Origin: a virus
Taxonomy: Duplodnaviria; Heunggongvirae; Uroviricota; Caudoviricetes
DNA: 64,000 nt
Direction: 5' to 3' (one strand)
Virus record (IMG/VR): IMGVR_UViG_2675903433_000022
Position 1 is the first letter of the stretch, and each line of letters opens with the position of its first letter. Shown here in pieces: positions 7,080 through 27,420 of this stretch. The notes beneath the pieces were generated by a model. The model worked only from the letters and a program-made list of their open reading frames with translations, was not told where the DNA came from and did not search any database. Position numbers and translations under genes: made by a program.

Positions 7080-8180
7080 TCACACTGCGCGGAATGCGAT
7101 TTCGCCAGGTATTACTTCACCTTGCCAATACATTTGGGCAGCAACGCGATCTGCGAGGTCACGATAAATAGCCGTAAATTCGCTATCTGGACGACTAATA
7201 ACGGTTGGTGTTCCGTTATCCAGATCTTCACGAAGAGAGATATGAAGTGGCATTTGGCCTAACAACTGCGTGTTGTATTTCTCGGCCAGTTTCTGTGCGC
7301 CACCGGTGCCAAAAATTGGCTCGTGATGACCGCAGTTACTGCAAATATGCATACTCATGTTCTCGACAATACCGAGCACCGGAACCTCGACTTTCTCGAA
7401 CATCACAATGCCTTTTTTCGCATCGATCAACGCGATGTCCTGCGGCGTAGTTACCACAACCGCACCAGTTACAGGAATGTTCTGCGCCAGCGTCAATTGA
7501 ATATCACCAGTGCCCGGCGGCATATCGAGAACGAGATAGTCCAGATCAGGCCATAGAGTTTCCTGCAACATCTGCATTAACGCCTTGCTCGCCATCGGAC
7601 CACGCCACACCATCGCATTGTCGTCAGTTACCAGATAACCAATTGAATTGGTTGCCAGTCCATGAGACATAATCGGTGCCATGTGAGTACCGTCCGGTGA
7701 GGTTGGACGTTGGTTTTCCGCGCCAAGCATGGTTGGAATTGATGGCCCGTAGATATCGGCATCCAAAATACCAACTTTCGCACCTTCAGCAGCCAACGCC
7801 AGTGCCAGGTTTACCGCCGTGGAGGATTTACCAACGCCGCCCTTGCCTGAGCTGACGGCGATAATGTTCTTAACGCCATTAATGCCTGGTTGGTTTTTGA
7901 CGCGCTTAAGCGTGGCAATGTTGTACGACAGCTTCCAGTCGATAGCCTTTGCGCCAGTGATACGGAGCAGATCACCACTACATTGCTCTTTCAGGTCTTC
8001 AAAAGGCTTATTCCACACGAAAGGCATGATTAGTTCGACATGCAGTGTGTCATCCATCAACGCAACATGGTGTAACGCTTTAAGCGTAGTCAGGTTGTGT
8101 TTCAGGGTTGGGTGCTGAAAATTAGCCAGCGTACCGGCTACCATTGCTCTCAGGGCATCCGGCGATTTGGACTCGCTCAT
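7080..8180 (-). CDS. apbC: Fe-S cluster carrier ATPase ApbC/Mrp
   Basis: 366 aa; SSGKGGVGKSSTAVNLALALA Walker A, CSNCGHHEPIFG motif; ortholog-level similarity to enterobacterial Mrp; divergent from metG as in enterobacterial chromosomes. Confidence 0.9.
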   Translation of the reverse strand: MSESKSPDALRAMVAGTLANFQHPTLKHNLTTLKALHHVALMDDTLHVELIMPFVWNKPFEDLKEQCSGDLLRITGAKAIDWKLSYNIATLKRVKNQPGINGVKNIIAVSSGKGGVGKSSTAVNLALALAAEGAKVGILDADIYGPSIPTMLGAENQRPTSPDGTHMAPIMSHGLATNSIGYLVTDDNAMVWRGPMASKALMQMLQETLWPDLDYLVLDMPPGTGDIQLTLAQNIPVTGAVVVTTPQDIALIDAKKGIVMFEKVEVPVLGIVENMSMHICSNCGHHEPIFGTGGAQKLAEKYNTQLLGQMPLHISLREDLDNGTPTVISRPDSEFTAIYRDLADRVAAQMYWQGEVIPGEIAFRAV

Positions 8181-8337
8181 CCCGTCTCCTTTATTTTAAT
8201 TTGCGCAATTGTCGCCTTGTAGTGTACTCCAGCTACGGCATTTAATCATTTATGAGAAATGCTGTTATCACATGGCAGACATAAGGCCATTTTGTTACTA
8301 TCAAGCCCCTTTTCACTACAAAGAAGTAATGCCTACT

Positions 8338-10371
8338 ATGACCCAAGTCGCGAAGAAAATTCTGGTGACGTGCGCGCTGCCGTACGCTAACGGCTCAATC
8401 CACCTCGGCCATATGCTGGAGCACATCCAGGCTGATGTCTGGGTTCGTTACCAGCGAATGCGCGGCCACGAGGTTAATTTCATCTGTGCCGACGATGCCC
8501 ACGGTACGCCGATCATGCTGAAAGCACAGCAGCTTGGTATCACACCGGAGCAGATGATTGGCGAAATGAGTCAGGAACACCAGACTGATTTCGCAGGCTT
8601 TAACATCAGCTATGACAACTATCACTCGACGCACAGCGAAGAGAACCGTCAGTTGTCTGAGCTTATCTATACTCGCCTGAAAGAGAACGGTTTTATTAAA
8701 AATCGTACCATCTCTCAGCTGTACGACCCGGAAAAAGGCATGTTCCTGCCGGACCGTTTTGTAAAAGGCACCTGCCCTAAATGTAAAGCGCCAGATCAAT
8801 ACGGCGATAACTGTGAAGTCTGCGGCGCGACTTACAGCCCGACTGAACTGATCGAGCCGAAATCGGTAGTTTCTGGTGCTACGCCGGTAATGCGTGATTC
8901 CGAACACTTCTTCTTTGATCTGCCTTCTTTCAGCGAAATGTTGCAGGCATGGACCCGCAGCGGTGCGTTGCAGGAGCAGGTGGCAAACAAAATGCAGGAG
9001 TGGTTTGAATCTGGCCTGCAACAGTGGGATATCTCCCGTGACGCACCTTACTTCGGTTTTGAAATTCCGAACGCGCCGGGCAAATATTTCTACGTCTGGC
9101 TGGACGCGCCGATTGGCTACATGGGTTCCTTCAAGAATCTGTGCGACAAGCGCGGTGATACCACCAGCTTCGATGAATACTGGAAGAAAGACTCCACCGC
9201 CGAGCTGTACCACTTCATCGGTAAAGATATTGTTTACTTCCACAGCCTGTTCTGGCCTGCCATGCTGGAAGGCAGCAACTTCCGCAAGCCGACCAACCTG
9301 TTTGTTCATGGCTATGTGACGGTGAACGGCGCAAAGATGTCCAAGTCTCGCGGCACCTTTATTAAAGCCAGCACCTGGCTGAATCATTTTGACGCTGACA
9401 GCCTGCGTTACTACTACACTGCGAAACTCTCTTCGCGCATTGATGATATCGATCTCAACCTGGAGGATTTCGTTCAGCGCGTGAATGCCGATATCGTGAA
9501 CAAAGTGGTTAACCTGGCCTCCCGTAATGCAGGCTTTATCAACAAGCGTTTTGACGGCGTGCTGGCAAGCGAACTGGCTGACCCGCAACTGTACAAAACC
9601 TTTACTGATGCCGCTGAAGTGATTGGTGAAGCATGGGAAAGCCGCGAATTTGGTAAAGCGATTCGTGAAATCATGGCGCTGGCTGATCTGGCTAACCGCT
9701 ATGTCGATGAACAGGCTCCGTGGGTGGTGGCGAAGCAGGAAGGACGCGATGCCGATCTGCAGGCGATTTGCTCTATGGGCATTAACCTGTTCCGCGTGCT
9801 GATGACGTACCTGAAACCGGTACTGCCGAAACTGACTGAACGTGCAGAAGCATTCCTGAATACAGAACTGACCTGGGATGGTATCCAGCAACCGCTGCTG
9901 GGCCATAAAGTGAATCCGTTCAAGGCACTGTATAACCGTATCGATATGAAACAGGTGGAAGCACTGGTGGAAGCATCCAAAGAAGAAGTGAAAGCCACAG
10001 CTGCACCGGTAACTGGCCCACTGGCTGACGACCCGATTCAGGAAACCATCACCTTTGACGACTTCGCCAAAGTTGACCTGCGTGTGGCGCTGATTGAAAA
10101 CGCGGAGTTTGTCGAAGGTTCTGACAAACTGCTTCGCCTGACGCTGGATCTCGGTGGTGAAAAGCGTAATGTCTTCTCAGGCATCCGTTCCGCTTATCCA
10201 GATCCACAGGCACTGATTGGTCGTCACACCATTATGGTGGCTAACCTGGCTCCGCGTAAAATGCGCTTCGGTATCTCTGAAGGCATGGTGATGGCTGCTG
10301 GCCCCGGCGGGAAAGATATCTTCCTGTTAAGCCCGGATGCTGGTGCTAAACCTGGCCACCAGGTTAAGTAA
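8338..10371 (+). CDS. metG: Methionyl-tRNA synthetase
   Basis: 677 aa from [29 protein letters not shown] (HIGH motif), KMSKS present, C-terminal tRNA-binding domain; track ORF 8209 is an upstream in-frame extension. Confidence 0.95.
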
Positions 10372-17618: not shown

Positions 17619-18143
17619 TCAAAAAGGCAAAATTCGCTCAACCCAATCGAACAAAACAACTATTTTTCTACCGTTCTCGACACGTAGTGTAACCTGACAA
17701 GCATCTGCGCCTGCTGACACTCCCTCAATTTCACGGCCATCCGCCATGTACACCCTTATAGATTTGTTTGCTTTGTAGGCTTGGTTGCAAATTGCAAAAA
17801 AATCGCGGCGTGATGGCCGATTATCGACATAATCAGGGTGAACTGTTAGTCGACCTTTGAAATCGTGAGCGATACTGTCAACCACACCTGATTCAATTGT
17901 ACTAATGCGTTCAAGTGGGAGCCTTATACGATTTTCTTTATCAAAAGGGGCTGGGCAAAGGTCAACTTTGTTACGAGATGGCATGAGGCCATAAACGTAC
18001 ATGCAAAACGCCTGGCCATCTTCGAGAGTGACCCTTACAGGAATTTGTTCTCTGCGCCAGAACATCAGTAGTTTTTCAACGTTAGTGTAATCTCGCGGCC
18101 AGAGTTCAGCTTGGATACCGTAGGTAATATCTTTGGTTGTCAT
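17619..18143 (-). CDS. Hypothetical protein
   Basis: Start MTTKD directly after the upstream stop; track ORF to 18221 overlaps the upstream gene. Confidence 0.5.
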   Translation of the reverse strand: MTTKDITYGIQAELWPRDYTNVEKLLMFWRREQIPVRVTLEDGQAFCMYVYGLMPSRNKVDLCPAPFDKENRIRLPLERISTIESGVVDSIAHDFKGRLTVHPDYVDNRPSRRDFFAICNQAYKANKSIRVYMADGREIEGVSAGADACQVTLRVENGRKIVVLFDWVERILPF

Positions 18144-18147
18144 GTCA

Positions 18148-18612
18148 TCACAGAGTTGTTGGCAGAATGTCGATGTCACCAGAATTGCTGGTGAACACCC
18201 TGAACGCTTTTGTGTCTCCATTCTTCAGAGTCGTTTCTCGCTCTTGACGAGCGGGGTTTAGAGCACATAAACCTGCACCTTCAAGAGATGCACCCACAAT
18301 TAATTCTCCGGCATTTAAATGGAAAGTCGCTTTTTCGCCTGTAGCCAGTTTTGCGACAGTTTCGCCGTTGATGAAAATGGAAGCATCACATCCAGCTCCT
18401 ACAAAACCTGTGTCTCTCATTACCACCAACGTAGCTGGCGCTGCGCTTTGATACTTGAACACTTTGGCCTGCGGTGCTGGTTTGGCGTCATGGATTGATA
18501 TTGGGCGTGATTGGCACGCGGTAAGCATCAACACTGGTAACGTTAGTAGAGGGAGAAGCGAGTATTTCATGATAGTTTTAGAACAGAAAGTGAACAGTAT
18601 GGGAGACTTCAT
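18148..18612 (-). CDS. Putative lipoprotein
   Basis: Signal peptide with lipobox LTAC (…LPLLTLPVLMLTAC); RBS agggagacaaag before the first ATG; a shorter start at MKYSLL is possible. Confidence 0.6.
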   Translation of the reverse strand: MKSPILFTFCSKTIMKYSLLPLLTLPVLMLTACQSRPISIHDAKPAPQAKVFKYQSAAPATLVVMRDTGFVGAGCDASIFINGETVAKLATGEKATFHLNAGELIVGASLEGAGLCALNPARQERETTLKNGDTKAFRVFTSNSGDIDILPTTL

Positions 18613-18919: not shown

Positions 18920-20479
18920 CTAATCTCGTTTCAGAACTCCAAAATCGAATGCTCCATCAATAGGCAATACACCTTCTGCAAAGCCAGGTGTGGTGTCGAT
19001 GATGTGTTTTCGCTCATAAGAGTGAGACAACAGGTATTTGTTGCTAATGTCAATGAAATCAGTGATAAAACACACGTTTGCCTGATTTTTTTTGGCTCGT
19101 AAGCCACGACCGACACGCTGCCTCATTTCAACTTCTGCTTTCCCACCACCAGCAAGAATGACCGCACCAACGCTTGGCACATCAACACCGACATCCAGAA
19201 TAGTCGAGCCTATTAAAACATCTATTTCTCCAGACGCTAAACTGTTCAGCTTTGCTTGCCTTGTCGCCTGGTTAGATTCCCCATAGATGAAGTCAACTCT
19301 AAGGCCGGACTCTTTCATCATTTCCATCAGGATTTGCCCGTGGCGTTTAAGACGAACCAGAGTCATACAATTGAGAGAATGTTGCTTATAGAGCAATGCT
19401 TCGCGAACAATGGCCTCGTTACGTCCCAAATTATACACGATCCCCAACTGATAAGCCTTTTGGTAGGCGGTGCTCATACCAACTCTAAAATTGAGGTGTT
19501 TGTTGGCAAGTTCGGCCTTGATTCTGGCCTCGTCTGGCTTGTAGGCAACTTTATGATAAAGGAAGTACGGCTTTGCCAGAATGCCTCGATCAATCAGGTA
19601 CTTTTCTGTGACTTTAATTTCAATTCGCCCGGCCACCGCCATCAGGCGCATGTTGGCTTCCGTCGAATCCTTCATGAACGGCGTGGCTGTAAGCGCCAGA
19701 CGATAGTCTGCGTTCACACATAATCTGGCGATGTCATAGAAATTTGAGCCTGAAGACTCATGCGCCTCTTCCAGAATAAGAAGAGAGACACTTGAAAGGA
19801 AGCGTTTCACCAACTCCCGACGTTTGAGGTGGTAGCTTTTCTTATCTGGTGTTGCATCGCGTGGTGGTTCTTCGAGGAAACTTGCAAGAGTTTGAACTGT
19901 AGCGACGTTGATATGTCGTGATACCTGGAACTCACCCGAGCCAATGACTCCAACCTTTTGGTCTTTTAACCACGGTTCGCCATTTTCGGCGCGGTAGTCG
20001 ATGGATCTCTGGAAGTTTTCGGCCATTTGAAACATCAGAACAGAGCGGGTTGTTAAAAATAATGTCATTCGACCGATACGTGCAGCTGCTTTGCAGGCAA
20101 CGTTAGATTTCCCGCCACCAGTAGCGATCTGCGCAATCATCATTCCCTCTCGAACCAGTGTTTCCACAGTCTGATCCTGATACGCATAATCAGGATTGTA
20201 TGGGAATGGGTTAACCGCCGGATTTGGTTTACCAAGCGCCGGGGCTTTGTCTTTGCGGATATGAACACATTTGATGCCCGCCTTGTTCAAGTTCGCCGCT
20301 ACAGGCTTGGCAAAGCCAGCAGGGAACGAGTTTTTACTCCAGTTGAACATCGTGCTTGTGCCCTTCCAGTCGCCAGTCTCGACTTCGTAGCTCAACATTT
20401 GCTGCACCAGTTGCTTTACCTTGTCATCTGCGCCAGAAATAAGCGCATTTACTGCGTTAGATACAATCCGAACAGTCAT
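18920..20479 (-). CDS. Superfamily-2 DEAD/DEAH-box helicase
   Basis: Walker A IATGGGKS, DEAH-type LILEEAHE, TATP motif, C-terminal helicase motifs (GRGLR). Confidence 0.8.
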   Translation of the reverse strand: MTVRIVSNAVNALISGADDKVKQLVQQMLSYEVETGDWKGTSTMFNWSKNSFPAGFAKPVAANLNKAGIKCVHIRKDKAPALGKPNPAVNPFPYNPDYAYQDQTVETLVREGMMIAQIATGGGKSNVACKAAARIGRMTLFLTTRSVLMFQMAENFQRSIDYRAENGEPWLKDQKVGVIGSGEFQVSRHINVATVQTLASFLEEPPRDATPDKKSYHLKRRELVKRFLSSVSLLILEEAHESSGSNFYDIARLCVNADYRLALTATPFMKDSTEANMRLMAVAGRIEIKVTEKYLIDRGILAKPYFLYHKVAYKPDEARIKAELANKHLNFRVGMSTAYQKAYQLGIVYNLGRNEAIVREALLYKQHSLNCMTLVRLKRHGQILMEMMKESGLRVDFIYGESNQATRQAKLNSLASGEIDVLIGSTILDVGVDVPSVGAVILAGGGKAEVEMRQRVGRGLRAKKNQANVCFITDFIDISNKYLLSHSYERKHIIDTTPGFAEGVLPIDGAFDFGVLKRD

Positions 20480-20543
20480 AAACCTCTTTCCTTAGTGCCT
20501 TTTGTATGTTATTTGGCTATTATAATAAGTAAGTGATTACTTA

Positions 20544-21242
20544 GTGGATTGTAGCAATAAAATGGATGTAAAAATCACGATTTTGCAGGTTGATGTTGCC
20601 AACCTTCGCCCGAATACCTGGAACACCAATTCGGTTGGTGCGCAGAATTTTGAAAAACTGAAAGGTTCTATCGAAAAATTGGGCTTTTTTAAGCCAATTT
20701 TGGCTCGTGAACTTGAAGATGGATTTTTTGAAATCCTCGGCGGCGAACATCGCTGGCGTGCTGCTATTGAGCAAGGAATTTCAACGGTTCCGGTGCTTTC
20801 TGTGGGCAAAATTAGCGATGTCGTAGCTAAACAGATGTCACTGGTGGACAACGAGCGATACGGTGAAGACGACCAAATCGCATTGCAACGCTTCATTGAA
20901 GAAATTCAGTCAGAACTTGACTATCAACTGTCTGAAATCGCCCCGTATGACGACGAAATCTCGATGGTTTTAGCAAAAGAGGCGGCAATCGACCTTGAAG
21001 CACTGGAGGCGTTGTCTCGTGGTAGTGATGAGCCTGTCGATACCGACAAACGAGAGAAAACCGAACGTGTGGGGGCGGAACATCAGACCATGCGCTTCAA
21101 AGTAACTTTCGATGCGTCAGATCGTGTTGCAGAAACCATAAAAAACATCATCAAAGAGCAGGCTATTAACACCGGTAATGAAATGGAGAACGCTGGTGAG
21201 GCTCTGGTGTGGCTGGTCGACTACTACAAGGAGCGTATGTAA
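20544..21242 (+). CDS. ParB/Srx-fold (ParB N-terminal domain) protein 1
   Basis: VANLRPNTWNTN and GGEHRWRAA motifs typical of the ParB nuclease-like domain; start ambiguous (GTG 20544 or ATG 20562). Confidence 0.7.
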   Translation: MDCSNKMDVKITILQVDVANLRPNTWNTNSVGAQNFEKLKGSIEKLGFFKPILARELEDGFFEILGGEHRWRAAIEQGISTVPVLSVGKISDVVAKQMSLVDNERYGEDDQIALQRFIEEIQSELDYQLSEIAPYDDEISMVLAKEAAIDLEALEALSRGSDEPVDTDKREKTERVGAEHQTMRFKVTFDASDRVAETIKNIIKEQAINTGNEMENAGEALVWLVDYYKERM

Positions 21243-21910
21243 TGACCAAAAAGTTTGAAATCGTATATCGCGACCCGGCAGATCTTATTCCCTATGAGAT
21301 GAATGCCAAAAAGCATGATGAACAGCAGATCCGAGATCTGGCCGCAGCCATTAAAAAGCGCGGATTTGACCAGCCAATTACGGTCGATAAGAACGACGTA
21401 ATTATTACTGGCCACGGCCGCCGTGAGGCTGCAATTTTTGCTGGACTTGAGCGCGTGCCGGTTATTGTTCGCGATGATCTCAGTGATGACGAGGTTCGTG
21501 CGAAGCGCCTTGAAGATAACCGACTTGCCAGCATTGATTACGATGCAATTAAGCTACAGAAAGAGCTTGAGTCGCTTGTTCTGGACGATATCGAGGTTTT
21601 CGGCTTTGAAGAGCGTGAGTTGAATGTTCTCGTTGGCAGTATGACAGAAGAAATGGACACCGACTCGCTAGTTATCGATCTTGGCGAAGAAACTAAACGA
21701 CAGAAGGATGAACACACCGAGATCAGTCGCGAAGTTGCAGCGGAAGAAGTACGTGTTGTCGACGTATTGGGCTTTAAAACGCTTCCTGCTGGCTCTGCCA
21801 TTGTTGTTGGTGATTTGCTTGCCCACATGGAAGAAATGACGGGAGAGAGCGGGGTAGACGCATTTGTGGCATATGCGGAGAAGATCTCTTCCGGGGAGAT
21901 GGCTGCATGA
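21242..21910 (+). CDS. ParB/Srx-fold (ParB N-terminal domain) protein 2
   Basis: LIPYEMNAKKH...GHGRREAA motifs; ATG overlaps upstream stop (TAATG); RBS AAGGAG. Confidence 0.7.
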   Translation: MTKKFEIVYRDPADLIPYEMNAKKHDEQQIRDLAAAIKKRGFDQPITVDKNDVIITGHGRREAAIFAGLERVPVIVRDDLSDDEVRAKRLEDNRLASIDYDAIKLQKELESLVLDDIEVFGFEERELNVLVGSMTEEMDTDSLVIDLGEETKRQKDEHTEISREVAAEEVRVVDVLGFKTLPAGSAIVVGDLLAHMEEMTGESGVDAFVAYAEKISSGEMAA

Positions 21911-22572
21911 GCAAATACATCATCAACGTATCGTTTCAGACTCGCGTAAATAAAACCACGCGCACATTGGAAATCGCTGAGTCGTTCGGGCTTGGCCTGG
22001 ACGAAAAAGAGTGGACGCTTTACGACAATCTGGAGCTGGAAGTGAAGCAGGGCGATGTGGTGTACATCACCGGCCAATCCGGTTCCGGCAAATCCGTTGT
22101 GCTGCGCGAGTTGCAACGACAGATGAAGGATGAAGGGCTGTCTGTAGCCTCCATCGATGATTTTACCTTCGATAATGAGGTTAACGTCATCGATCAGTTG
22201 GGCAAAACGACCAGTGATGCGCTTGGGTTGTTATCTATGGCTGGTCTGAACGATGCATATCTGTTTGTTCGCAAGCCTTCTGAAATGTCAGACGGCCAGA
22301 AATATCGTCTCAAGATTGCCAAACTGATTGAGTCAGGCGCTAAAGTGTGGGCTGCTGACGAGTTCGGCGCTGTTCTCGACCGTGTAACCGCTCAGGTTGT
22401 GGCGTCTAACCTCCAGCGTGCCGCTCGAAAGGTTGGTGCGACGGTAATGGTGGCGACGACTCACGAAGACCTGAAGAACGCGCTGCGCCCGGATATGCAG
22501 ATCACCAAGCACTACAAAGAACGCGTGAAGGTGGAATATCACAATGGTAGTCATGATGAGGTCCATTCATGA
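21907..22572 (+). CDS. ABC-type ATPase (no transmembrane partner)
   Basis: Walker A GQSGSGKS, signature-like MSDGQKYRL, Walker B VWAADEF, H-loop TTHE; ATGA-coupled. Confidence 0.7.
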   Translation: MSKYIINVSFQTRVNKTTRTLEIAESFGLGLDEKEWTLYDNLELEVKQGDVVYITGQSGSGKSVVLRELQRQMKDEGLSVASIDDFTFDNEVNVIDQLGKTTSDALGLLSMAGLNDAYLFVRKPSEMSDGQKYRLKIAKLIESGAKVWAADEFGAVLDRVTAQVVASNLQRAARKVGATVMVATTHEDLKNALRPDMQITKHYKERVKVEYHNGSHDEVHS

Positions 22573-23459
22573 CGGACATCATCATTAAACGCTACCGCCC
22601 TGAAGAGTTTCCGCGTCATCTGGACTTTCTGGAGCGAATGACTGTTACAAAGGGAACTGTAGAGGACTGGCACGCTCTTAAGTCGCTTCACTACAAAACA
22701 GACGGCAAACCTTTCGCGCCAACTTACTATCGCTGCGAACTTGATGACCGTCTGGTGGGCGTCGTGGTTATGGCTTACCCGAAACTACTGTTGGCACCTC
22801 GCCACCGCATGTTTCCTAAGTTGAAACCAACCACTAATACCACCGTGGCTAACCAGTACTGGGGTCGGTACGTGAATAACAACTTTGCGGTGATCAGTCG
22901 CTCAGTTGTGGATACTCAGTATCGTGGCGTAGGCGTCTCTTATCGAATGATTAACCTGGTTAGCAGGATGCATGACCGGCCAATCATTGAGATCCAGTCC
23001 TCGATGAGCAAATACAATCCCTTCGCCATGAAAGCAGGGTTTAAGTTCATCCGCCCTGAGCGACCGAAGAGCTATGAAAGTGCACTGCGTGTATTCCAGC
23101 GCCATTTCCGTTCCGACCCGGGTGATAACGAGGCGATCGTCAAAGAGTTGTTCGCAATGAGCGAGTCTCGTCGTCGCCGTGCACTGCGTGATCTGGTGGC
23201 GGACTACCACAAGAACAGTTCCCTGGCAAAAGCTGGGCGGAATCGTGGCACTACGATTCAGGACATTGCCGACAGTCTGGTGGACGAGGCCAGCATTGTG
23301 AAGCTGCTCAAGGACATTCACAACCTGAGCTTTACGTCTCCGTTGTATGGTGTGTACCGAAACCCTGACTTTGGCCGTCGACTGCCTGACACGCTGCCAC
23401 TGCTGGCATTCGACAAACAACCTTTGGATAAACCGTTAGAAATTGCTTTACCGGCATAA
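22569..23459 (+). CDS. Hypothetical protein with GNAT-like acetyltransferase motif
   Basis: VVDTQYRGVGVSYRMINLV resembles GNAT motif A; ATGA-coupled to the ATPase gene. Confidence 0.5.
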   Translation: MTDIIIKRYRPEEFPRHLDFLERMTVTKGTVEDWHALKSLHYKTDGKPFAPTYYRCELDDRLVGVVVMAYPKLLLAPRHRMFPKLKPTTNTTVANQYWGRYVNNNFAVISRSVVDTQYRGVGVSYRMINLVSRMHDRPIIEIQSSMSKYNPFAMKAGFKFIRPERPKSYESALRVFQRHFRSDPGDNEAIVKELFAMSESRRRRALRDLVADYHKNSSLAKAGRNRGTTIQDIADSLVDEASIVKLLKDIHNLSFTSPLYGVYRNPDFGRRLPDTLPLLAFDKQPLDKPLEIALPA

Positions 23460-23758: not shown

Positions 23759-23815
23759 ACCTGCTTCTGTATATATAAATAATAAGTAACTTATTAAATA
23801 TATACGGAAGCAGGC
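23759..23815. repeat. ~56-bp imperfect palindrome, copy 1 (cctgcttctg-core-cggaagcagg)
   Basis: Second copy at 56808-56866 has an identical 36-bp core with the flanking stems reverse-complemented. Confidence 0.6.
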
Positions 23816-23930: not shown

Positions 23931-24563
23931 ATGACGGTCGAAAAAGACGAGGTAAAAACTCGCCTGACACCAGCGGAGTGGGCCGAAGCTGAAGCCAAAT
24001 GGACGTCAGGCGAATATACACTCTCAAAGCTGGAGGAAGAGTACGGCATTCGTCGTGAAACACTCTCCAGACATTTCAAAAAGCGAGGATTAGAGAAAGG
24101 CGCGGACTCTGTTGGGAAGATGGTTCGTGAGTCTCTTAAATCTGACGCAGAGCTTCGCGCTAAAGCCCGTGCGGAAAAGATAGAAGAACGTCGTACACGT
24201 TATGACGGCTGGGCGTATGCGTTGGGGCAGATGGTGATGGTCGAAGTCACTACGGCCAAACGTGAGGGTAAGCCTTTAGGGGCGATTGAGGATTCTCTCA
24301 AGAGCTTACAGAGAGCCAGTAATACCCTTGCAAAATGCTTTGAAGTTTCGTCCAAAGCATTGGGCATGGATCATGCGGAAAATGACGAGGAAGAAATTCC
24401 GAACCTGGTATTTGGTGAGCTTACGCCTTCCCAGGTGGCGAAATTACGTCAGGAAGACGACGAGCCTGAAATCATCGATGACGAATTGCTTGAGACGTTG
24501 GAAGAAGAAGCTCTAAGCGAATTTGATGCGACAGATGATGGAATTGAAGGGGAGGACGAATAA
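23931..24563 (+). CDS. Terminase small subunit (putative)
   Basis: 210 aa directly upstream of and overlapping terL; HTH-like LSKLEEEYGIRRETLSRHF; acidic C-terminus. Confidence 0.6.
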   Translation: MTVEKDEVKTRLTPAEWAEAEAKWTSGEYTLSKLEEEYGIRRETLSRHFKKRGLEKGADSVGKMVRESLKSDAELRAKARAEKIEERRTRYDGWAYALGQMVMVEVTTAKREGKPLGAIEDSLKSLQRASNTLAKCFEVSSKALGMDHAENDEEEIPNLVFGELTPSQVAKLRQEDDEPEIIDDELLETLEEEALSEFDATDDGIEGEDE

Positions 24564-25819
24564 TGGCAATCCCGTCCTCGCTCAGTCTTGTGCAACTGCA
24601 TTCTGGACAGATGAAAGTCTTCCAGTCTCCGCATCGATTTAAAGTTGTTTGTGCTGGTCGACGCTGGGGAAAATCCCGGTTGTCGATCTCCACTATTATT
24701 CGTGCGGCGGCAAAGGAAAAAAAGCAAAGAGTCTGGTATGTCGCTCCTACTTACCAGATGGCTCGCCAGATTTTGTGGGACGATCTACAGGAAGTTCTGC
24801 CTCGTAAGTGGGTTAGGAAAAAGAACGACACCACGATGACAATCGTGTTGAAGAACGGTTCGGAGATCGCCCTCAAAGGTGCTGATAAGCCTGACACTCT
24901 GCGCGGCGTAGCGTTGCATTTTGTAGTGCTTGATGAATTTCAGGATATGAAGGCTGACACCTGGTACAAGGTGTTACGACCTACTCTTTCATCGACACGC
25001 GGCGGTGCACTGATCATTGGTACGCCAAAAGGCTTCTCGGAATTTCACAAACTGTGGACTATAGGCCAGAACGTAGAGCTGCAAAGAAAGGGACAGTGGA
25101 AGAGCTGGCAGTTTGTAACTGCCGATTCTCCGTTTGTACCTACGGCGGAAATTGAAGCTGCTAAGAATGATATGGACCCGAAATCGTTCGCTCAGGAGTA
25201 CCTGGCGAGCTTTGAGAACATGTCCGGGCGCGTTTACTACCCGTTCGATCGTAACGTGCATGTAAAACCGCTTCAGTTCAACCCTCGGTTGCCTATATGG
25301 GTAGGGCAGGACTTCAACATTGACCCGATGTCTTCAGTAATTTTGCAACCTCAGCCAAATGGTGAGCTATGGGCAATTGATGAATTGGTGCTCTTTTCCT
25401 CTAACACGGCAGAGGTTTGTGATGAGCTTGAGAGACGCTTCTGGCGCTGGAAATCACAGATAACGGTATTTCCAGATCCGGCAGGTGCTTATCGCCAACA
25501 TGCTCGCGGGGAGTCTGACGTCGACATATTCAAAGAGAAGGGATTCTTACGTGTCGATTATTCGAAAAAGCACCCGCCAATTGCGGATCGTGTTAATGCT
25601 GTTAACCGAATGCTGATGACCGCATCTGGAGATATCCGGTTGTATATCGATCCGAAGTGCAAGCATTTGATTGATTCACTGGAAAAAGTCATCTACAAGC
25701 CTGGAACACGAGATATGGATAAGACAGGTGGCATTGAGCATAGTGCAGACGCATTGGGCTATCCAGTACATCGTAGGTATCCAGTCAAAAACCGTGTTAT
25801 TCTTGGTGGTTCTCGATAG
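24563..25819 (+). CDS. Terminase large subunit
   Basis: 418 aa; Walker A-like VVCAGRRWGKS; gene order terS-terL-portal. Confidence 0.8.
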   Translation: MAIPSSLSLVQLHSGQMKVFQSPHRFKVVCAGRRWGKSRLSISTIIRAAAKEKKQRVWYVAPTYQMARQILWDDLQEVLPRKWVRKKNDTTMTIVLKNGSEIALKGADKPDTLRGVALHFVVLDEFQDMKADTWYKVLRPTLSSTRGGALIIGTPKGFSEFHKLWTIGQNVELQRKGQWKSWQFVTADSPFVPTAEIEAAKNDMDPKSFAQEYLASFENMSGRVYYPFDRNVHVKPLQFNPRLPIWVGQDFNIDPMSSVILQPQPNGELWAIDELVLFSSNTAEVCDELERRFWRWKSQITVFPDPAGAYRQHARGESDVDIFKEKGFLRVDYSKKHPPIADRVNAVNRMLMTASGDIRLYIDPKCKHLIDSLEKVIYKPGTRDMDKTGGIEHSADALGYPVHRRYPVKNRVILGGSR

Positions 25820-25845: not shown

Positions 25846-27420
25846 ATGGAATTGAACGACAAACAAATTAAGGATCTGGTGGCGCGACGCCACCCGGAAT
25901 ACGAAAAGAAAAAAGAACATTGGGACTTCCTCGCCAGCACTTACGCTGGCGGGCGTGGTTGGTTTACAGACAATATCTTTCGTTACTTTAAAGAGGGAGA
26001 TCAGGAGTTTAAGGAGCGAGTTGAGCGTGCTTATCGCTTCAACCACACTCGTGAGGTGGTAAACCTCATCAACAAATATCTCTTTAAAGAAGACATTCAT
26101 AGAAATATCGAAGAGGCACCAGAGCAGATCCGCAATTTCTGGAAACGTGCGACTCGCCAGAATGCCTCTATTGACTCATTTATGGCCGCTATTGATTTGC
26201 AGTCGTCTATTTACGGTCGCATATGGGTTGTTGTCGATAGCACGATGAGTGGTGATGTTGAGTCAGTAGCTGACGAGAAAAAGAAAGATGCTCGCGCCTA
26301 CGCCTACTGGATTTCACCTCAGCAAATGCTGGATGTGGCATGGGACGACGACGGGAATATGTTGTGGGCGTTAATTGTGGAAGTCGCTCGTGATGACGCA
26401 GATCCTTTTACTTCTACAGGTCAGGAATACCAACGTTATCGTCTGTGGACACAAAACGAGTGGTATCTGTTCCGTGAGGAAGTGAAGAAGGGCGCTGGTG
26501 GAGCAGGTCGCCGTCAGGCAAAAGTTATTTTAGAGGATAGCGGTGAGCATAATCTCGGCGTAGTTCCTGTGTTTCCTGTTGATTGTATTGGAGAAAGTGA
26601 ATCACCGTATTTCAGCCCATCGTTGATCGATGATATCGCTTATCTTGATCGTGCGGTTGCAAACTATCTGTCAAACCTTGATGCCATTATTCAGGATCAG
26701 ACATTTAGCCAGTTGGCTATACCGGTACAGTCGCTTTTACCTGGTGATGAAAACCACACTAAAGTGCTTGAAATGGGCACAAAGCGAGTCTTCACCTACG
26801 ATTCTGAAGGTGGAAACCAGCCGTTTTATCTGTCACCAGACCCGAAACAAGCTCAGATGATCATCACTACGATTAAGACGGTGATTAACGAAATCTACCA
26901 TTCAGTTGGTGTAGCTGGTGAGCGAACGAAGCAGGACAACGCACAGGGAATCGATAACTCATCTGGTGCCGCAAAAATGTATGACTTCCAGCGTGTAAAT
27001 AGCTTGCTTGTCACAAAAGCAGAGCGTCTGGAAAGGGCTGAACGCCAAATCATGCTACTGGTTGCGAAATGGATGGGGGTAGATCTGGACGAAGACCACT
27101 CTTTAATTGCGTATCCAGAAAGTTTCGATATTCGTGGCCTTACAGATGAATTTTCTGTTGCCGAGAAACTGTCATTACTTCAGGCACCGGACTCTGTACG
27201 TCGTCACCAGATGGAAATGCTTATTGAGAAGATTTTCCCGAACATTACTGAGGCGATGAAAAAGGAATTTGATAAAGATCTCTTGAATTTTCCGCCAAAA
27301 AATGATCTAAATACCCTTGAAAATAAGTCAGTACTTACTTATGATCGTGGTACAGCCCAAGAAAGCGGGCAAGATCAACCCCGAGGGAATGGGGACTCAT
27401 CTACTCAAGAGAACGAGTGA
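25846..27420 (+). CDS. Portal protein (putative)
   Basis: 524 aa, immediately after terL and before scaffold and capsid genes. Confidence 0.7.
   Translation: MELNDKQIKDLVARRHPEYEKKKEHWDFLASTYAGGRGWFTDNIFRYFKEGDQEFKERVERAYRFNHTREVVNLINKYLFKEDIHRNIEEAPEQIRNFWKRATRQNASIDSFMAAIDLQSSIYGRIWVVVDSTMSGDVESVADEKKKDARAYAYWISPQQMLDVAWDDDGNMLWALIVEVARDDADPFTSTGQEYQRYRLWTQNEWYLFREEVKKGAGGAGRRQAKVILEDSGEHNLGVVPVFPVDCIGESESPYFSPSLIDDIAYLDRAVANYLSNLDAIIQDQTFSQLAIPVQSLLPGDENHTKVLEMGTKRVFTYDSEGGNQPFYLSPDPKQAQMIITTIKTVINEIYHSVGVAGERTKQDNAQGIDNSSGAAKMYDFQRVNSLLVTKAERLERAERQIMLLVAKWMGVDLDEDHSLIAYPESFDIRGLTDEFSVAEKLSLLQAPDSVRRHQMEMLIEKIFPNITEAMKKEFDKDLLNFPPKNDLNTLENKSVLTYDRGTAQESGQDQPRGNGDSSTQENE

Follow-up and report, generated by a model that had tools for sequence, protein, structure and literature searches.

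A ParB, ABC-type ATPase and GNAT operon beside the terminase genes of an SSU5-like phage-plasmid, a candidate DNA-marking system

The DNA analyzed here is a 64,000-nucleotide stretch from a tailed phage (Caudoviricetes; IMG/VR record IMGVR_UViG_2675903433_000022), hereafter the window, which we assign to the SSU5-like phage-plasmids. It contains an operon encoding two ParB/Srx proteins, an ABC-type ATPase, and a GNAT-fold protein. A previous sequence-only reading had described these as a four-gene operon (20544–23459) between a helicase and the packaging genes. The position is confirmed by a helicase gene at 18920–20479 on the minus strand and by the TerS, TerL, and portal genes downstream. 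The four genes are indeed coupled, but the unit is not limited to them, as a fifth gene (88 amino acids) brings it to at least five.

Operon layout and the two ParB paralogs

The features of the locus are the following:

18920–20479, minus strand: DEAD/ResIII helicase, divergent neighbor of the operon
20480–20561, no strand: divergent intergenic region between the helicase (minus) and ParB-A (plus), presumed regulatory region of the operon
20562–21242, plus strand: ParB-A, 226 amino acids from the ATG at 20562 (232 if started at the GTG at 20544)
21242–21910, plus strand: ParB-B, 222 amino acids
21907–22572, plus strand: soluble ABC-type ATPase (gene 3), 221 amino acids
22569–23459, plus strand: GNAT-fold acyltransferase, predicted (gene 4), 296 amino acids
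23469–23735, plus strand: fifth gene, 88 amino acids
23760–23814, no strand: palindrome of 55 bp between the operon and terS
23931–24563, plus strand: small terminase TerS (phrog_867), given for context
24563–25819, plus strand: large terminase TerL (terminase PHROGs and Cyrano annotation), given for context, with the portal gene next

Direct reading of the sequence confirmed the overlaps of stop and start codons reported earlier. The TAA of ParB-A (21240–21242) shares a base with the ATG of ParB-B (21242–21244; TAATG), the ATG of the ABC gene at 21907 overlaps the TGA of ParB-B (21908–21910; ATGA), and the ATG of the GNAT gene at 22569 overlaps the TGA of the ABC gene (22570–22572; ATGA). The fifth gene starts 9 nt past gene 4 and has an AAGGA ribosome-binding site. 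Scans for promoters (sigma-70) and terminators gave results no better than shuffled sequences, including in the divergent region 20480–20561.

The two adjacent ParB/Srx proteins, initially recognized by their GGEHRWRAA and GHGRREAA motifs, both exceed the Pfam ParB_N (PF02195) cutoff of 26.3 bits (ParB-A, E 3.2e-13, 50 bits; ParB-B, E 1.3e-8, 35.2 bits) and align with Spo0J, ParB, and Noc structures. They are paralogs sharing 33% identity over the N-terminal domain (E 5e-10), and both are acidic (isoelectric points of 4.55 for ParB-A and 4.53 for ParB-B). ParB-A is composed of an N-terminal ParB/Srx nucleoside triphosphate (NTP)-binding domain, an acidic linker, and a conserved C-terminal domain; its model is unreliable beyond residue 97 (AlphaFold mean pLDDT 53.6), and the homologs retrieved for it were all close ones (85–100% identity). 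Our impression is that the two proteins may share a beta-alpha-alpha (ribbon-helix-helix-like) C-terminal domain. The CTP-binding box GERRxRA reads GEHRWRA in ParB-A, its first arginine being replaced by histidine (by threonine in Stenotrophomonas), and across the family alignment this box is GG(E/H/Q)HR instead of the canonical GERR. In ParB-B, the box is GHGRR (GHGRREA), identical in all six aligned ParB-B sequences.

At the family level, ParB-A matches phrog_723 (1e-78), and ParB-B matches phrog_930 (1e-112), phrog_498 (ParB-MTase; 1e-31), and the PADLOC MTase_II model (2.8e-17). ParB-B is thus of the type fused to phage DNA methyltransferases, and it also resembles the ParB encoded upstream of the ABC and GNAT genes in Streptococcus pyogenes prophage 315.4 (2.9e-24). 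Neither protein reaches the TIGR00180 partition-ParB cutoff (43.2 and 43.1 bits against 58.45), and no HTH_ParB domain was detected in ParB-A or ParB-B, whereas the ParB of L141 has one. The operon contains no ParA partner, its ATPase being of the ABC type; the related Escherichia phage Cyrano has a separate ParA locus, some 30 kb from the operon.

The ABC-type ATPase and the GNAT protein

Gene 3 encodes a nucleotide-binding domain (NBD) alone, in which all catalytic motifs are visible: Walker A GQSGSGKS, signature SDGQ, Walker B AADEF, and H-loop TTHED. It matches ABC_tran (PF00005) with an E of 5.8e-13 (50.1 bits against a cutoff of 25) and phrog_293 at 6e-59, in agreement with its initial assignment. 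Its description as a soluble protein also holds, as there is no permease open reading frame (ORF) alongside and no hydrophobic 19-mer above 1.6 in any protein of the operon (maximum KD19 1.0).

Gene 4 had been called GNAT-like, and both the fold and motif A support this call. The protein shows a GNAT fold (beta4-alpha3-beta5 core) at about residues 20–165, followed by a family-specific helical/beta C-terminal domain, and carries the motifs YRGVGVS (R-x-x-G-x-S/G/A) and NPFAMKAGF. In motif A, the pyrophosphate-binding loop (R119-G-V-G122-V-S), R119 and G122 are invariant in the family alignment; the corresponding motif of fused relatives is RGIGL(A/G). By sequence, the assignment is marginal, since gene 4 remains below the Pfam GNAT cutoff (Acetyltransf_10, 14.4 bits against 23.6, E 0.037), although some fused relatives do carry an Acetyltransf_1 match. 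NCBIfam returned no match for gene 4, and PADLOC retrieved from the operon only ParB-domain matches to MTase_II models and weak mad3, mad8, and PtuA ATPase matches. The protein is strongly basic, with an isoelectric point of 9.8 and a net charge of +15.

An exhaustive search with the gene-4 profile retrieved 903 relatives, hundreds of which are proteins of 450–500 amino acids with a GNAT-like C-terminal half and an N-terminal half corresponding to ABC_tran in Pfam. The gene-4 GNAT profile matches these fusions with E values of 1e-20 to 1e-27, and a search with gene 3 gave values of 1e-43 to 1e-64 (phmmer) for the ABC halves of 80 viral fusion proteins, compared with only about 1e-13 for transporter NBDs in the PDB. 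The fused family is labeled COG2401, [quoted passage not shown] (“MK0520”), a label used by the JGI and Cyrano annotators. The single-polypeptide architecture is not found in the window, where the two genes overlap by ATGA, and the same split occurs in Pseudomonas phage nickie, in the Rhizobium phages, and in S. pyogenes prophage 315.4. Because the gene-4 profile finds ABC-GNAT fusions, gene 3 matches their ABC half, and the two genes overlap, genes 3 and 4 are, on sequence grounds, the split form of a widespread fused ABC-GNAT protein, that is, one enzyme. The combination had not been recognized as a named system by the sequence-only reading; this does not hold for genes 3 and 4, as the pair corresponds to the COG2401 protein and has a published computational prediction.

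Some distant fused relatives have additional segments. Among four of them (P0166, P0177, P0203, and P0155), one protein harbors an intein with a LAGLIDADG endonuclease inside the ABC domain, two are predicted to follow a family-B DNA polymerase in the same polypeptide, and one has a C-terminal TFIIB repeat. These variants point to archaeal viruses or plasmids, and possibly to gene-calling run-ons. In the P0190-type fusion, an N-terminal P-loop region shows a sub-threshold match to the Pox_A32 packaging ATPase (E 0.015), and inspection by eye suggests a possible PD-(D/E)xK-like N-terminal segment.

Conservation, natural fusions, and gene neighborhoods

Profile and fold searches placed the genes in the families initially proposed rather than in unrelated ones, and the four genes, whose co-occurrence had been suggested as a check, occur together widely. 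The conserved order is helicase (minus strand), then ParB-A, ParB-B, ABC, zero to three variable small ORFs, GNAT, a small gene, TerS, TerL, and portal. It is found at about 40% identity in an Ectothiorhodospira contig and in a 3.27-Mb, seemingly chromosomal, metagenome contig, and also in cultured siphoviruses of about 110 kb (Pseudomonas nickie, Rhizobium RHph_N1_15 and RHEph10, Stenotrophomonas BUCTxx99, and Xanthomonas JGB6). Since phages of other genera retain this order with proteins about 40% identical, the four-gene arrangement is more than chance. The inserts between the ABC and GNAT genes vary by lineage (L169, 5043–5345; L002, 6994–7248; L004, 6961–7999). The insert of Rhizobium phage RHph_N1_15 (L169) encodes a Tad2-like anti-Thoeris protein (E 1e-23), and the others include Phage_gp49_66, a RyR-domain protein, and an 84-amino-acid ORF present in SSU5 and absent from the window. 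The site between the ABC and GNAT genes thus behaves like an accessory-gene hot spot.

In other genomes, the ParB domain is covalently attached. Single-chain ParB_N-ABC-GNAT proteins of about 630–680 amino acids were found (P0196, P0310, P0317, P0337, and P0367), with an N-terminal domain resembling ParB-A. Since such natural polypeptides exist, ParB is linked physically to the enzyme and, from these fusions and the operons, appears to belong to the same system. On large contigs, the ParB fusions adjoin an 841-amino-acid N6/N4 methyltransferase and Mrr_N, or type I hsdRSM genes, and the returned flanks of these fusions adjacent to restriction-modification (R-M) genes contain no terminase among their called genes.

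The neighborhoods differ among phage lineages. At the left genome end of Gordonia phage Axumite (L186), genes 1–4, all overlapping, encode a ParB-like protein, an ABC-GNAT fusion, a Formyl_trans_N protein, and the terminase; gene 3 (1805–2452), annotated as “tRNA-methyltransferase,” matches Pfam Formyl_trans_N with an E of 1e-8. The order in S. pyogenes prophage 315.4 is ParB_N, ABC, a short GNAT ORF, ASCH, a small gene, TerL, and portal, and the prophages of Desulfofarcimen and Pelotomaculum have the order fused gene, Amidoligase_2, GGACT, terminase, and portal. A large set of archaeal tailed viruses, including one integrated in a Bathyarchaeota genome, carries the fused gene right after TerL, as the last gene of the late block. 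A TerL-family gene is present in 61 of 80 archaeal-virus loci with the fused gene, and a ParB gene lies nearby in only two of the 19 with enough flank. One archaeal virus has the fused gene after the tail genes instead of TerL, the only exception to the adjacency of terminase and module in the tailed-phage lineages examined. Among the IMG/VR contigs of these archaeal tailed viruses (L088–L167), the contig ends within 1.5 kb downstream of the fused gene in 43 of 80 cases (in 18 of them inside the gene), against two of 80 upstream. The fused gene appears to be the last at the genome or provirus end in these viruses.

The fifth gene of the window encodes a basic protein (isoelectric point 10.2) matching phrog_900 (1.9e-45), possibly a winged-helix DNA-binding protein given its weak matches to Sta1/Lrs14 winged helix-turn-helix domains. 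A gene of 80–113 amino acids occupies this position in every annotated relative inspected, except in the frameshift-ridden Xanthomonas JGB6 record; no similarity was found between the 88-amino-acid protein and the archaeal HTH_45 neighbors. Downstream, the 55-bp palindrome (CCTGCTTCTGTATATAT...ATATATACGGAAGCAGG) is near-perfect and GC-clamped, with an AT-rich center, and the deposited genomes of SSU5 and Cyrano are both cut inside it, at window position 23797. Similar inverted repeats are located at the equivalent intergenic site in Rhizobium phage RHph_N1_15 (34-nt arms) and in L005 (19-nt arms). The palindrome may be a packaging (cos/pac), late regulatory, or terminator site, and its membership in the system is uncertain. 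It shares a motif with the operon: ATAATAAGTAA is located at 20522–20532, inside a 7-bp inverted repeat (TAAGTAA/TTACTTA), and also at the center of the palindrome. Exact copies in the window start at 20522, 23779, and 56827, and copies with one mismatch at 27335, 51856, and 63917; these six compare with 0.88 expected at up to one mismatch, and none of 100 shuffles reached six. Because the motif sits both upstream of ParB-A and in the palindrome upstream of terS, its copies hint at a co-regulation of the ParB and terS operons.

The 2.9-kb region is 99.3% identical to that of Cyrano, 98.6% to that of PhiR41_1, whose host is E. coli K-12 MG1655, and 85.7% to that of Salmonella phage SSU5. The operon DNA is present in 247 of 5426 complete E. 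coli genomes, plasmid-borne in every case, and a search with window 20544–23459 found it on 757 plasmids of PLSDB, 725 of which are predicted to be non-mobilizable; by genus, they include 292 from Klebsiella, 218 from Escherichia, 91 from Enterobacter, 62 from Yersinia, and 49 from Salmonella. The 62 Yersinia plasmids hold the operon at 80–90% identity, as do many Salmonella plasmids; we presume that the former may be pMT1-like and the latter pHCM2-like. The module may thus persist in plasmids seldom counted as active phages. The gene block has been in the databases since the sequencing of SSU5 and is annotated in SSU5, Cyrano, and hundreds of plasmids, under labels that say little or are incorrect (“ParB partition protein,” “ABC transporter,” “DNA modification methylase,” and “hypothetical protein”).

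Elsewhere, the window encodes a full-length methionyl-tRNA synthetase (8209–10371, plus strand; tRNA-synt_1g, E 5e-166, with a C-terminal tRNA_bind domain) and, divergently beside it, an Mrp/ApbC-type P-loop NTPase (7080–8180, minus strand; Pfam ParA/NUBPL, E 2e-102), a pair that we take to resemble a captured host metG-mrp pair. ARAGORN found no tRNA genes in the window, yet Cyrano is annotated with three in the matching region, and the Rfam and tRNA scans of the window revealed no RNA features. A 200-amino-acid protein (17619–18221, minus strand) matches Pfam Flag1_repress (E 2.5e-84), as an FljA-like phase-1 flagellin repressor; such a host-motility regulator is an unexpected cargo for an Escherichia phage-plasmid.

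Possible function and comparison with known systems

The ABC-GNAT module is predicted to put an uncharacterized acyl mark on a DNA base, as first proposed by Iyer, Zhang, Burroughs, and Aravind (NAR 2013) and taken up again in PMC7824862 (Viruses 2021), through which the earlier paper is cited here. Tenacibaculum phage pT24, an example phage of the latter publication, is matched by the fused family. In the literature searched, we found this prediction alone and no experiment on acyl transfer to a DNA base by an ABC-GNAT protein. Our results fit the prediction and extend it with the ParB linkage, the modifying neighbors, the R-M neighborhoods, and the basic subunit.

The reading that we favor, and to which we give about an even chance, is that the operon encodes a late-expressed, ParB-targeted, ATP-driven acyltransferase marking phage DNA before packaging. 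The ABC ATPase and the GNAT protein, as halves of one enzyme, would presumably form a complex, in which the ABC dimer, closing upon ATP use, would grip the DNA and bring a base to the basic GNAT subunit. The latter would put an acyl or aminoacyl group on an exocyclic amine, the donor being an acyl-CoA or perhaps an aminoacyl donor as in Mom. The two ParB/Srx paralogs could act as NTP-binding subunits for DNA loading and targeting, comparable to the ParB-like modules of DpdA, Dnd, and the ParB-methyltransferase fusions. Replicated DNA would be modified just before encapsidation, blunting host restriction; this timing fits, because the genes are co-oriented with and directly upstream of the packaging genes.

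Several observations count for DNA marking. Genes 3 and 4 are the halves of one split enzyme, and natural fusions tie ParB to it covalently. The ParB, ABC, and GNAT triad recurs in unrelated phages, its neighbors comprise nucleic-acid- or amine-modifying and conflict genes (Amidoligase_2, GGACT, methyltransferase, hsdRSM, ASCH, Formyl_trans_N, and Tad2), the GNAT is basic, and Mom is its top match, by a small margin, among viral structure models. Precedents for ParB-like partners of DNA modifiers are DpdB–DpdA (PMC12839542), the ParB-methyltransferase fusions, and the cassette of Microbacterium phage Antuna described below. The ASCH neighbor would point to cytosine N4 as the target, because ASCH proteins hydrolyze N4-acylcytosines (PMC6972931), and the formyltransferase, amidoligase, and GGACT neighbors suggest that, in some lineages, the product would carry a free amine that is processed further. 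A wider proposal, which we put forward tentatively and consider doubtful, is that the triad is a pan-phage writer of an undescribed base modification, the mark being N4-acylcytosine or a Mom-like aminoacyl adduct, and the ParBs loading the enzyme before packaging.

Other points weigh against DNA marking. Most GNATs act on proteins or small molecules, and the literature searched contains no report of modified virion DNA in SSU5-like phages. The window has no amidoligase, ASCH, or methyltransferase neighbor, ParB is not obligatory, as seen in the archaeal-virus loci, and a packaging factor would be just as likely to show the near-constant place beside the terminase. DNA modification or anti-restriction and a packaging accessory function, both guessed in the sequence-only reading, are the two leading explanations after our analysis.

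The packaging accessory is the strongest rival, even if we regard it as rather unlikely. The ParBs would load or condense concatemeric DNA near pac/cos, the ABC protein would remodel DNA for the terminase, and the GNAT would acetylate a protein (terminase, portal, or a host nucleoid protein) or a polyamine counter-ion. DNA loading and condensation are indeed the canonical role of ParB, and the module is found upstream of TerS and TerL in the SSU5/nickie group, upstream of the terminase in Gordonia, Streptococcus, Desulfofarcimen, and Pelotomaculum phages, and immediately downstream of TerL in archaeal viruses. The clustering of contig ends after the fused gene, the large palindrome between the operon and terS, and the weak Pox_A32 match of the P0190 N-terminal P-loop go in the same direction. 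However, DNA-modification genes often take the same late-operon position, and the ordinary TerS and TerL are complete, leaving no obvious gap in the packaging machinery. Moreover, the amidoligase, GGACT, ASCH, formyltransferase, methyltransferase, and R-M neighbors make no sense for a packaging factor, the ParB-ABC-GNAT fusions beside R-M genes lack a terminase among the called flank genes, and in one archaeal virus the gene follows the tail genes.

We consider improbable a host-takeover or anti-defense acetyltransferase acting on a protein or small molecule, with the ParB and ABC proteins merely as regulators or localizers. Some phage GNATs do acetylate host proteins; Rac, for instance, targets the alpha subunit of RNA polymerase (cited in PMC7824862). 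The Rhizobium operon contains an inserted gene for the anti-Thoeris protein Tad2, and the variable small ORFs between conserved genes resemble anti-defense hot spots. In contrast, an action on DNA is indicated by the recurrent joining of the enzyme to a DNA-binding ParB domain in one polypeptide, by the basic GNAT, by the DNA-modification neighbors, and by the possible PD-(D/E)xK-like fusion seen by eye, and there was no match to PADLOC or other anti-defense families. A partition or maintenance system of the phage-plasmid, suggested by the database names and by the resemblance of the ParB_N domains to Spo0J, ParB, and Noc, is very improbable and is effectively excluded by the missing ParA (the ParA locus of Cyrano being separate), by the sub-cutoff scores and undetected HTH_ParB domain, and by the presence of the block in non-plasmid phages (nickie, Rhizobium, and Stenotrophomonas) and of a homologous block on the 3.27-Mb contig. 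Finally, there is next to no chance of an ABC transporter ATP-binding subunit, as which genes 3 and 4 are annotated in SSU5 and PHROGs: gene 3 is closest in sequence to transporter NBDs, but the anatomy rejects this function, with no permease or binding-protein gene, no hydrophobic segment, a gene 4 that is a GNAT and not an ATPase, and a family fused to GNAT and ParB domains.

If DNA marking is correct, the operon would represent a new chemical class of phage DNA modification with an unusual mechanism, in which an ABC ATPase and ParB-type NTPases serve a GNAT. The module is spread among phages of Proteobacteria, Actinobacteria, and Firmicutes and among archaeal viruses. The mark would have consequences for restriction evasion, for the host range of resistance-spreading phage-plasmids, and for how sequencing platforms read DNA, and would bear on the toolkit of DNA-modifying enzymes. 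If the module instead served packaging, several phyla would share a new terminase accessory. The K-12-infecting relatives PhiR41_1 and Cyrano, 98.6–99.3% identical in this region, make the 2013 prediction directly testable. We found no description of the split form with two ParB paralogs, the triad upstream of the terminase across bacterial phyla, the natural triple fusions, or the amine-modifying neighbors; Iyer et al. (2013) and Krishnan et al. (2020) lie outside this comparison, so part of this may be known.

Among known systems, Mom of phage Mu is a GNAT that modifies adenine N6 in double-stranded DNA with Gly-tRNAGly as the donor (PMC13219725, PMC7261163). Mom acts alone, without an ATPase, and gene 4 carries a different C-terminal domain. 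A specific kinship of the gene-4 family to Mom finds no support in an hhalign comparison with Mom homologs (probability 2.9%, E 0.016) or in PDB searches with the protein and the family profile, which gave no meaningful match. When the catalytic residues of Mom (H48/Y49, R101, D139, and Y149 in the literature numbering) were compared, the invariant H41-Y42 of gene 4 aligned with the H-Y of Mom in the sole aligned segment, the remaining alignment being out of register. In Antuna (L181; 2969–4228), the genes for a protein with a ParB-like nuclease domain and for a Mom-like acetyltransferase overlap by 8 nt, and a tRNA-Gly(CCC) gene comes next. These genes look like a compact cassette fitting the Gly-tRNA-dependent chemistry of Mom, with a ParB partner that Mu lacks; the tRNA is meaningful in this place because Mom uses Gly-tRNAGly on double-stranded DNA (PMC13219725).

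The Dpd system is comparable in that a ParB/Srx-type NTPase partners a DNA base-modifying enzyme: the transglycosylase DpdA and the ParB-like ATPase DpdB insert preQ0 into DNA (PMC12839542), and the modification needs nucleotide hydrolysis. Dpd differs in its fold (TGT instead of GNAT) and chemistry and in being a cellular restriction-modification-like defense system, and the sequence relationship is limited to the ParB superfamily. In the Streptococcus prophage, the ABC and GNAT genes adjoin ASCH, a recognizer or eraser of N4-acylcytosine (PMC6972931), which provides a link to TmcA. The canonical ParABS, Noc, and Spo0J proteins share recognizable ParB_N box motifs with ParB-A and ParB-B; the latter have no ParA partner, no detected helix-turn-helix domain, and an altered GERR box, and are present in non-plasmid phages. 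TmcA/NAT10 combines an ATPase/helicase with a GNAT writing N4-acetylcytidine in RNA, and thus likewise couples an NTPase to a GNAT to reach a paired base, although its NTPase belongs to the RecD-like helicase type, not to the ABC type, and its substrates are tRNA and rRNA.

COG2401 itself is among the closest known counterparts. Genes 3 and 4 correspond by homology to its two halves and share with them their order, their viral or late-gene context, and family-specific motifs such as AExFGLGxDE, LSDGQKYR, HY(K/R), and RGxG. The window differs in that the enzyme is split into coupled genes, with two ParB/Srx paralogs before it and an 88-amino-acid basic protein after it.

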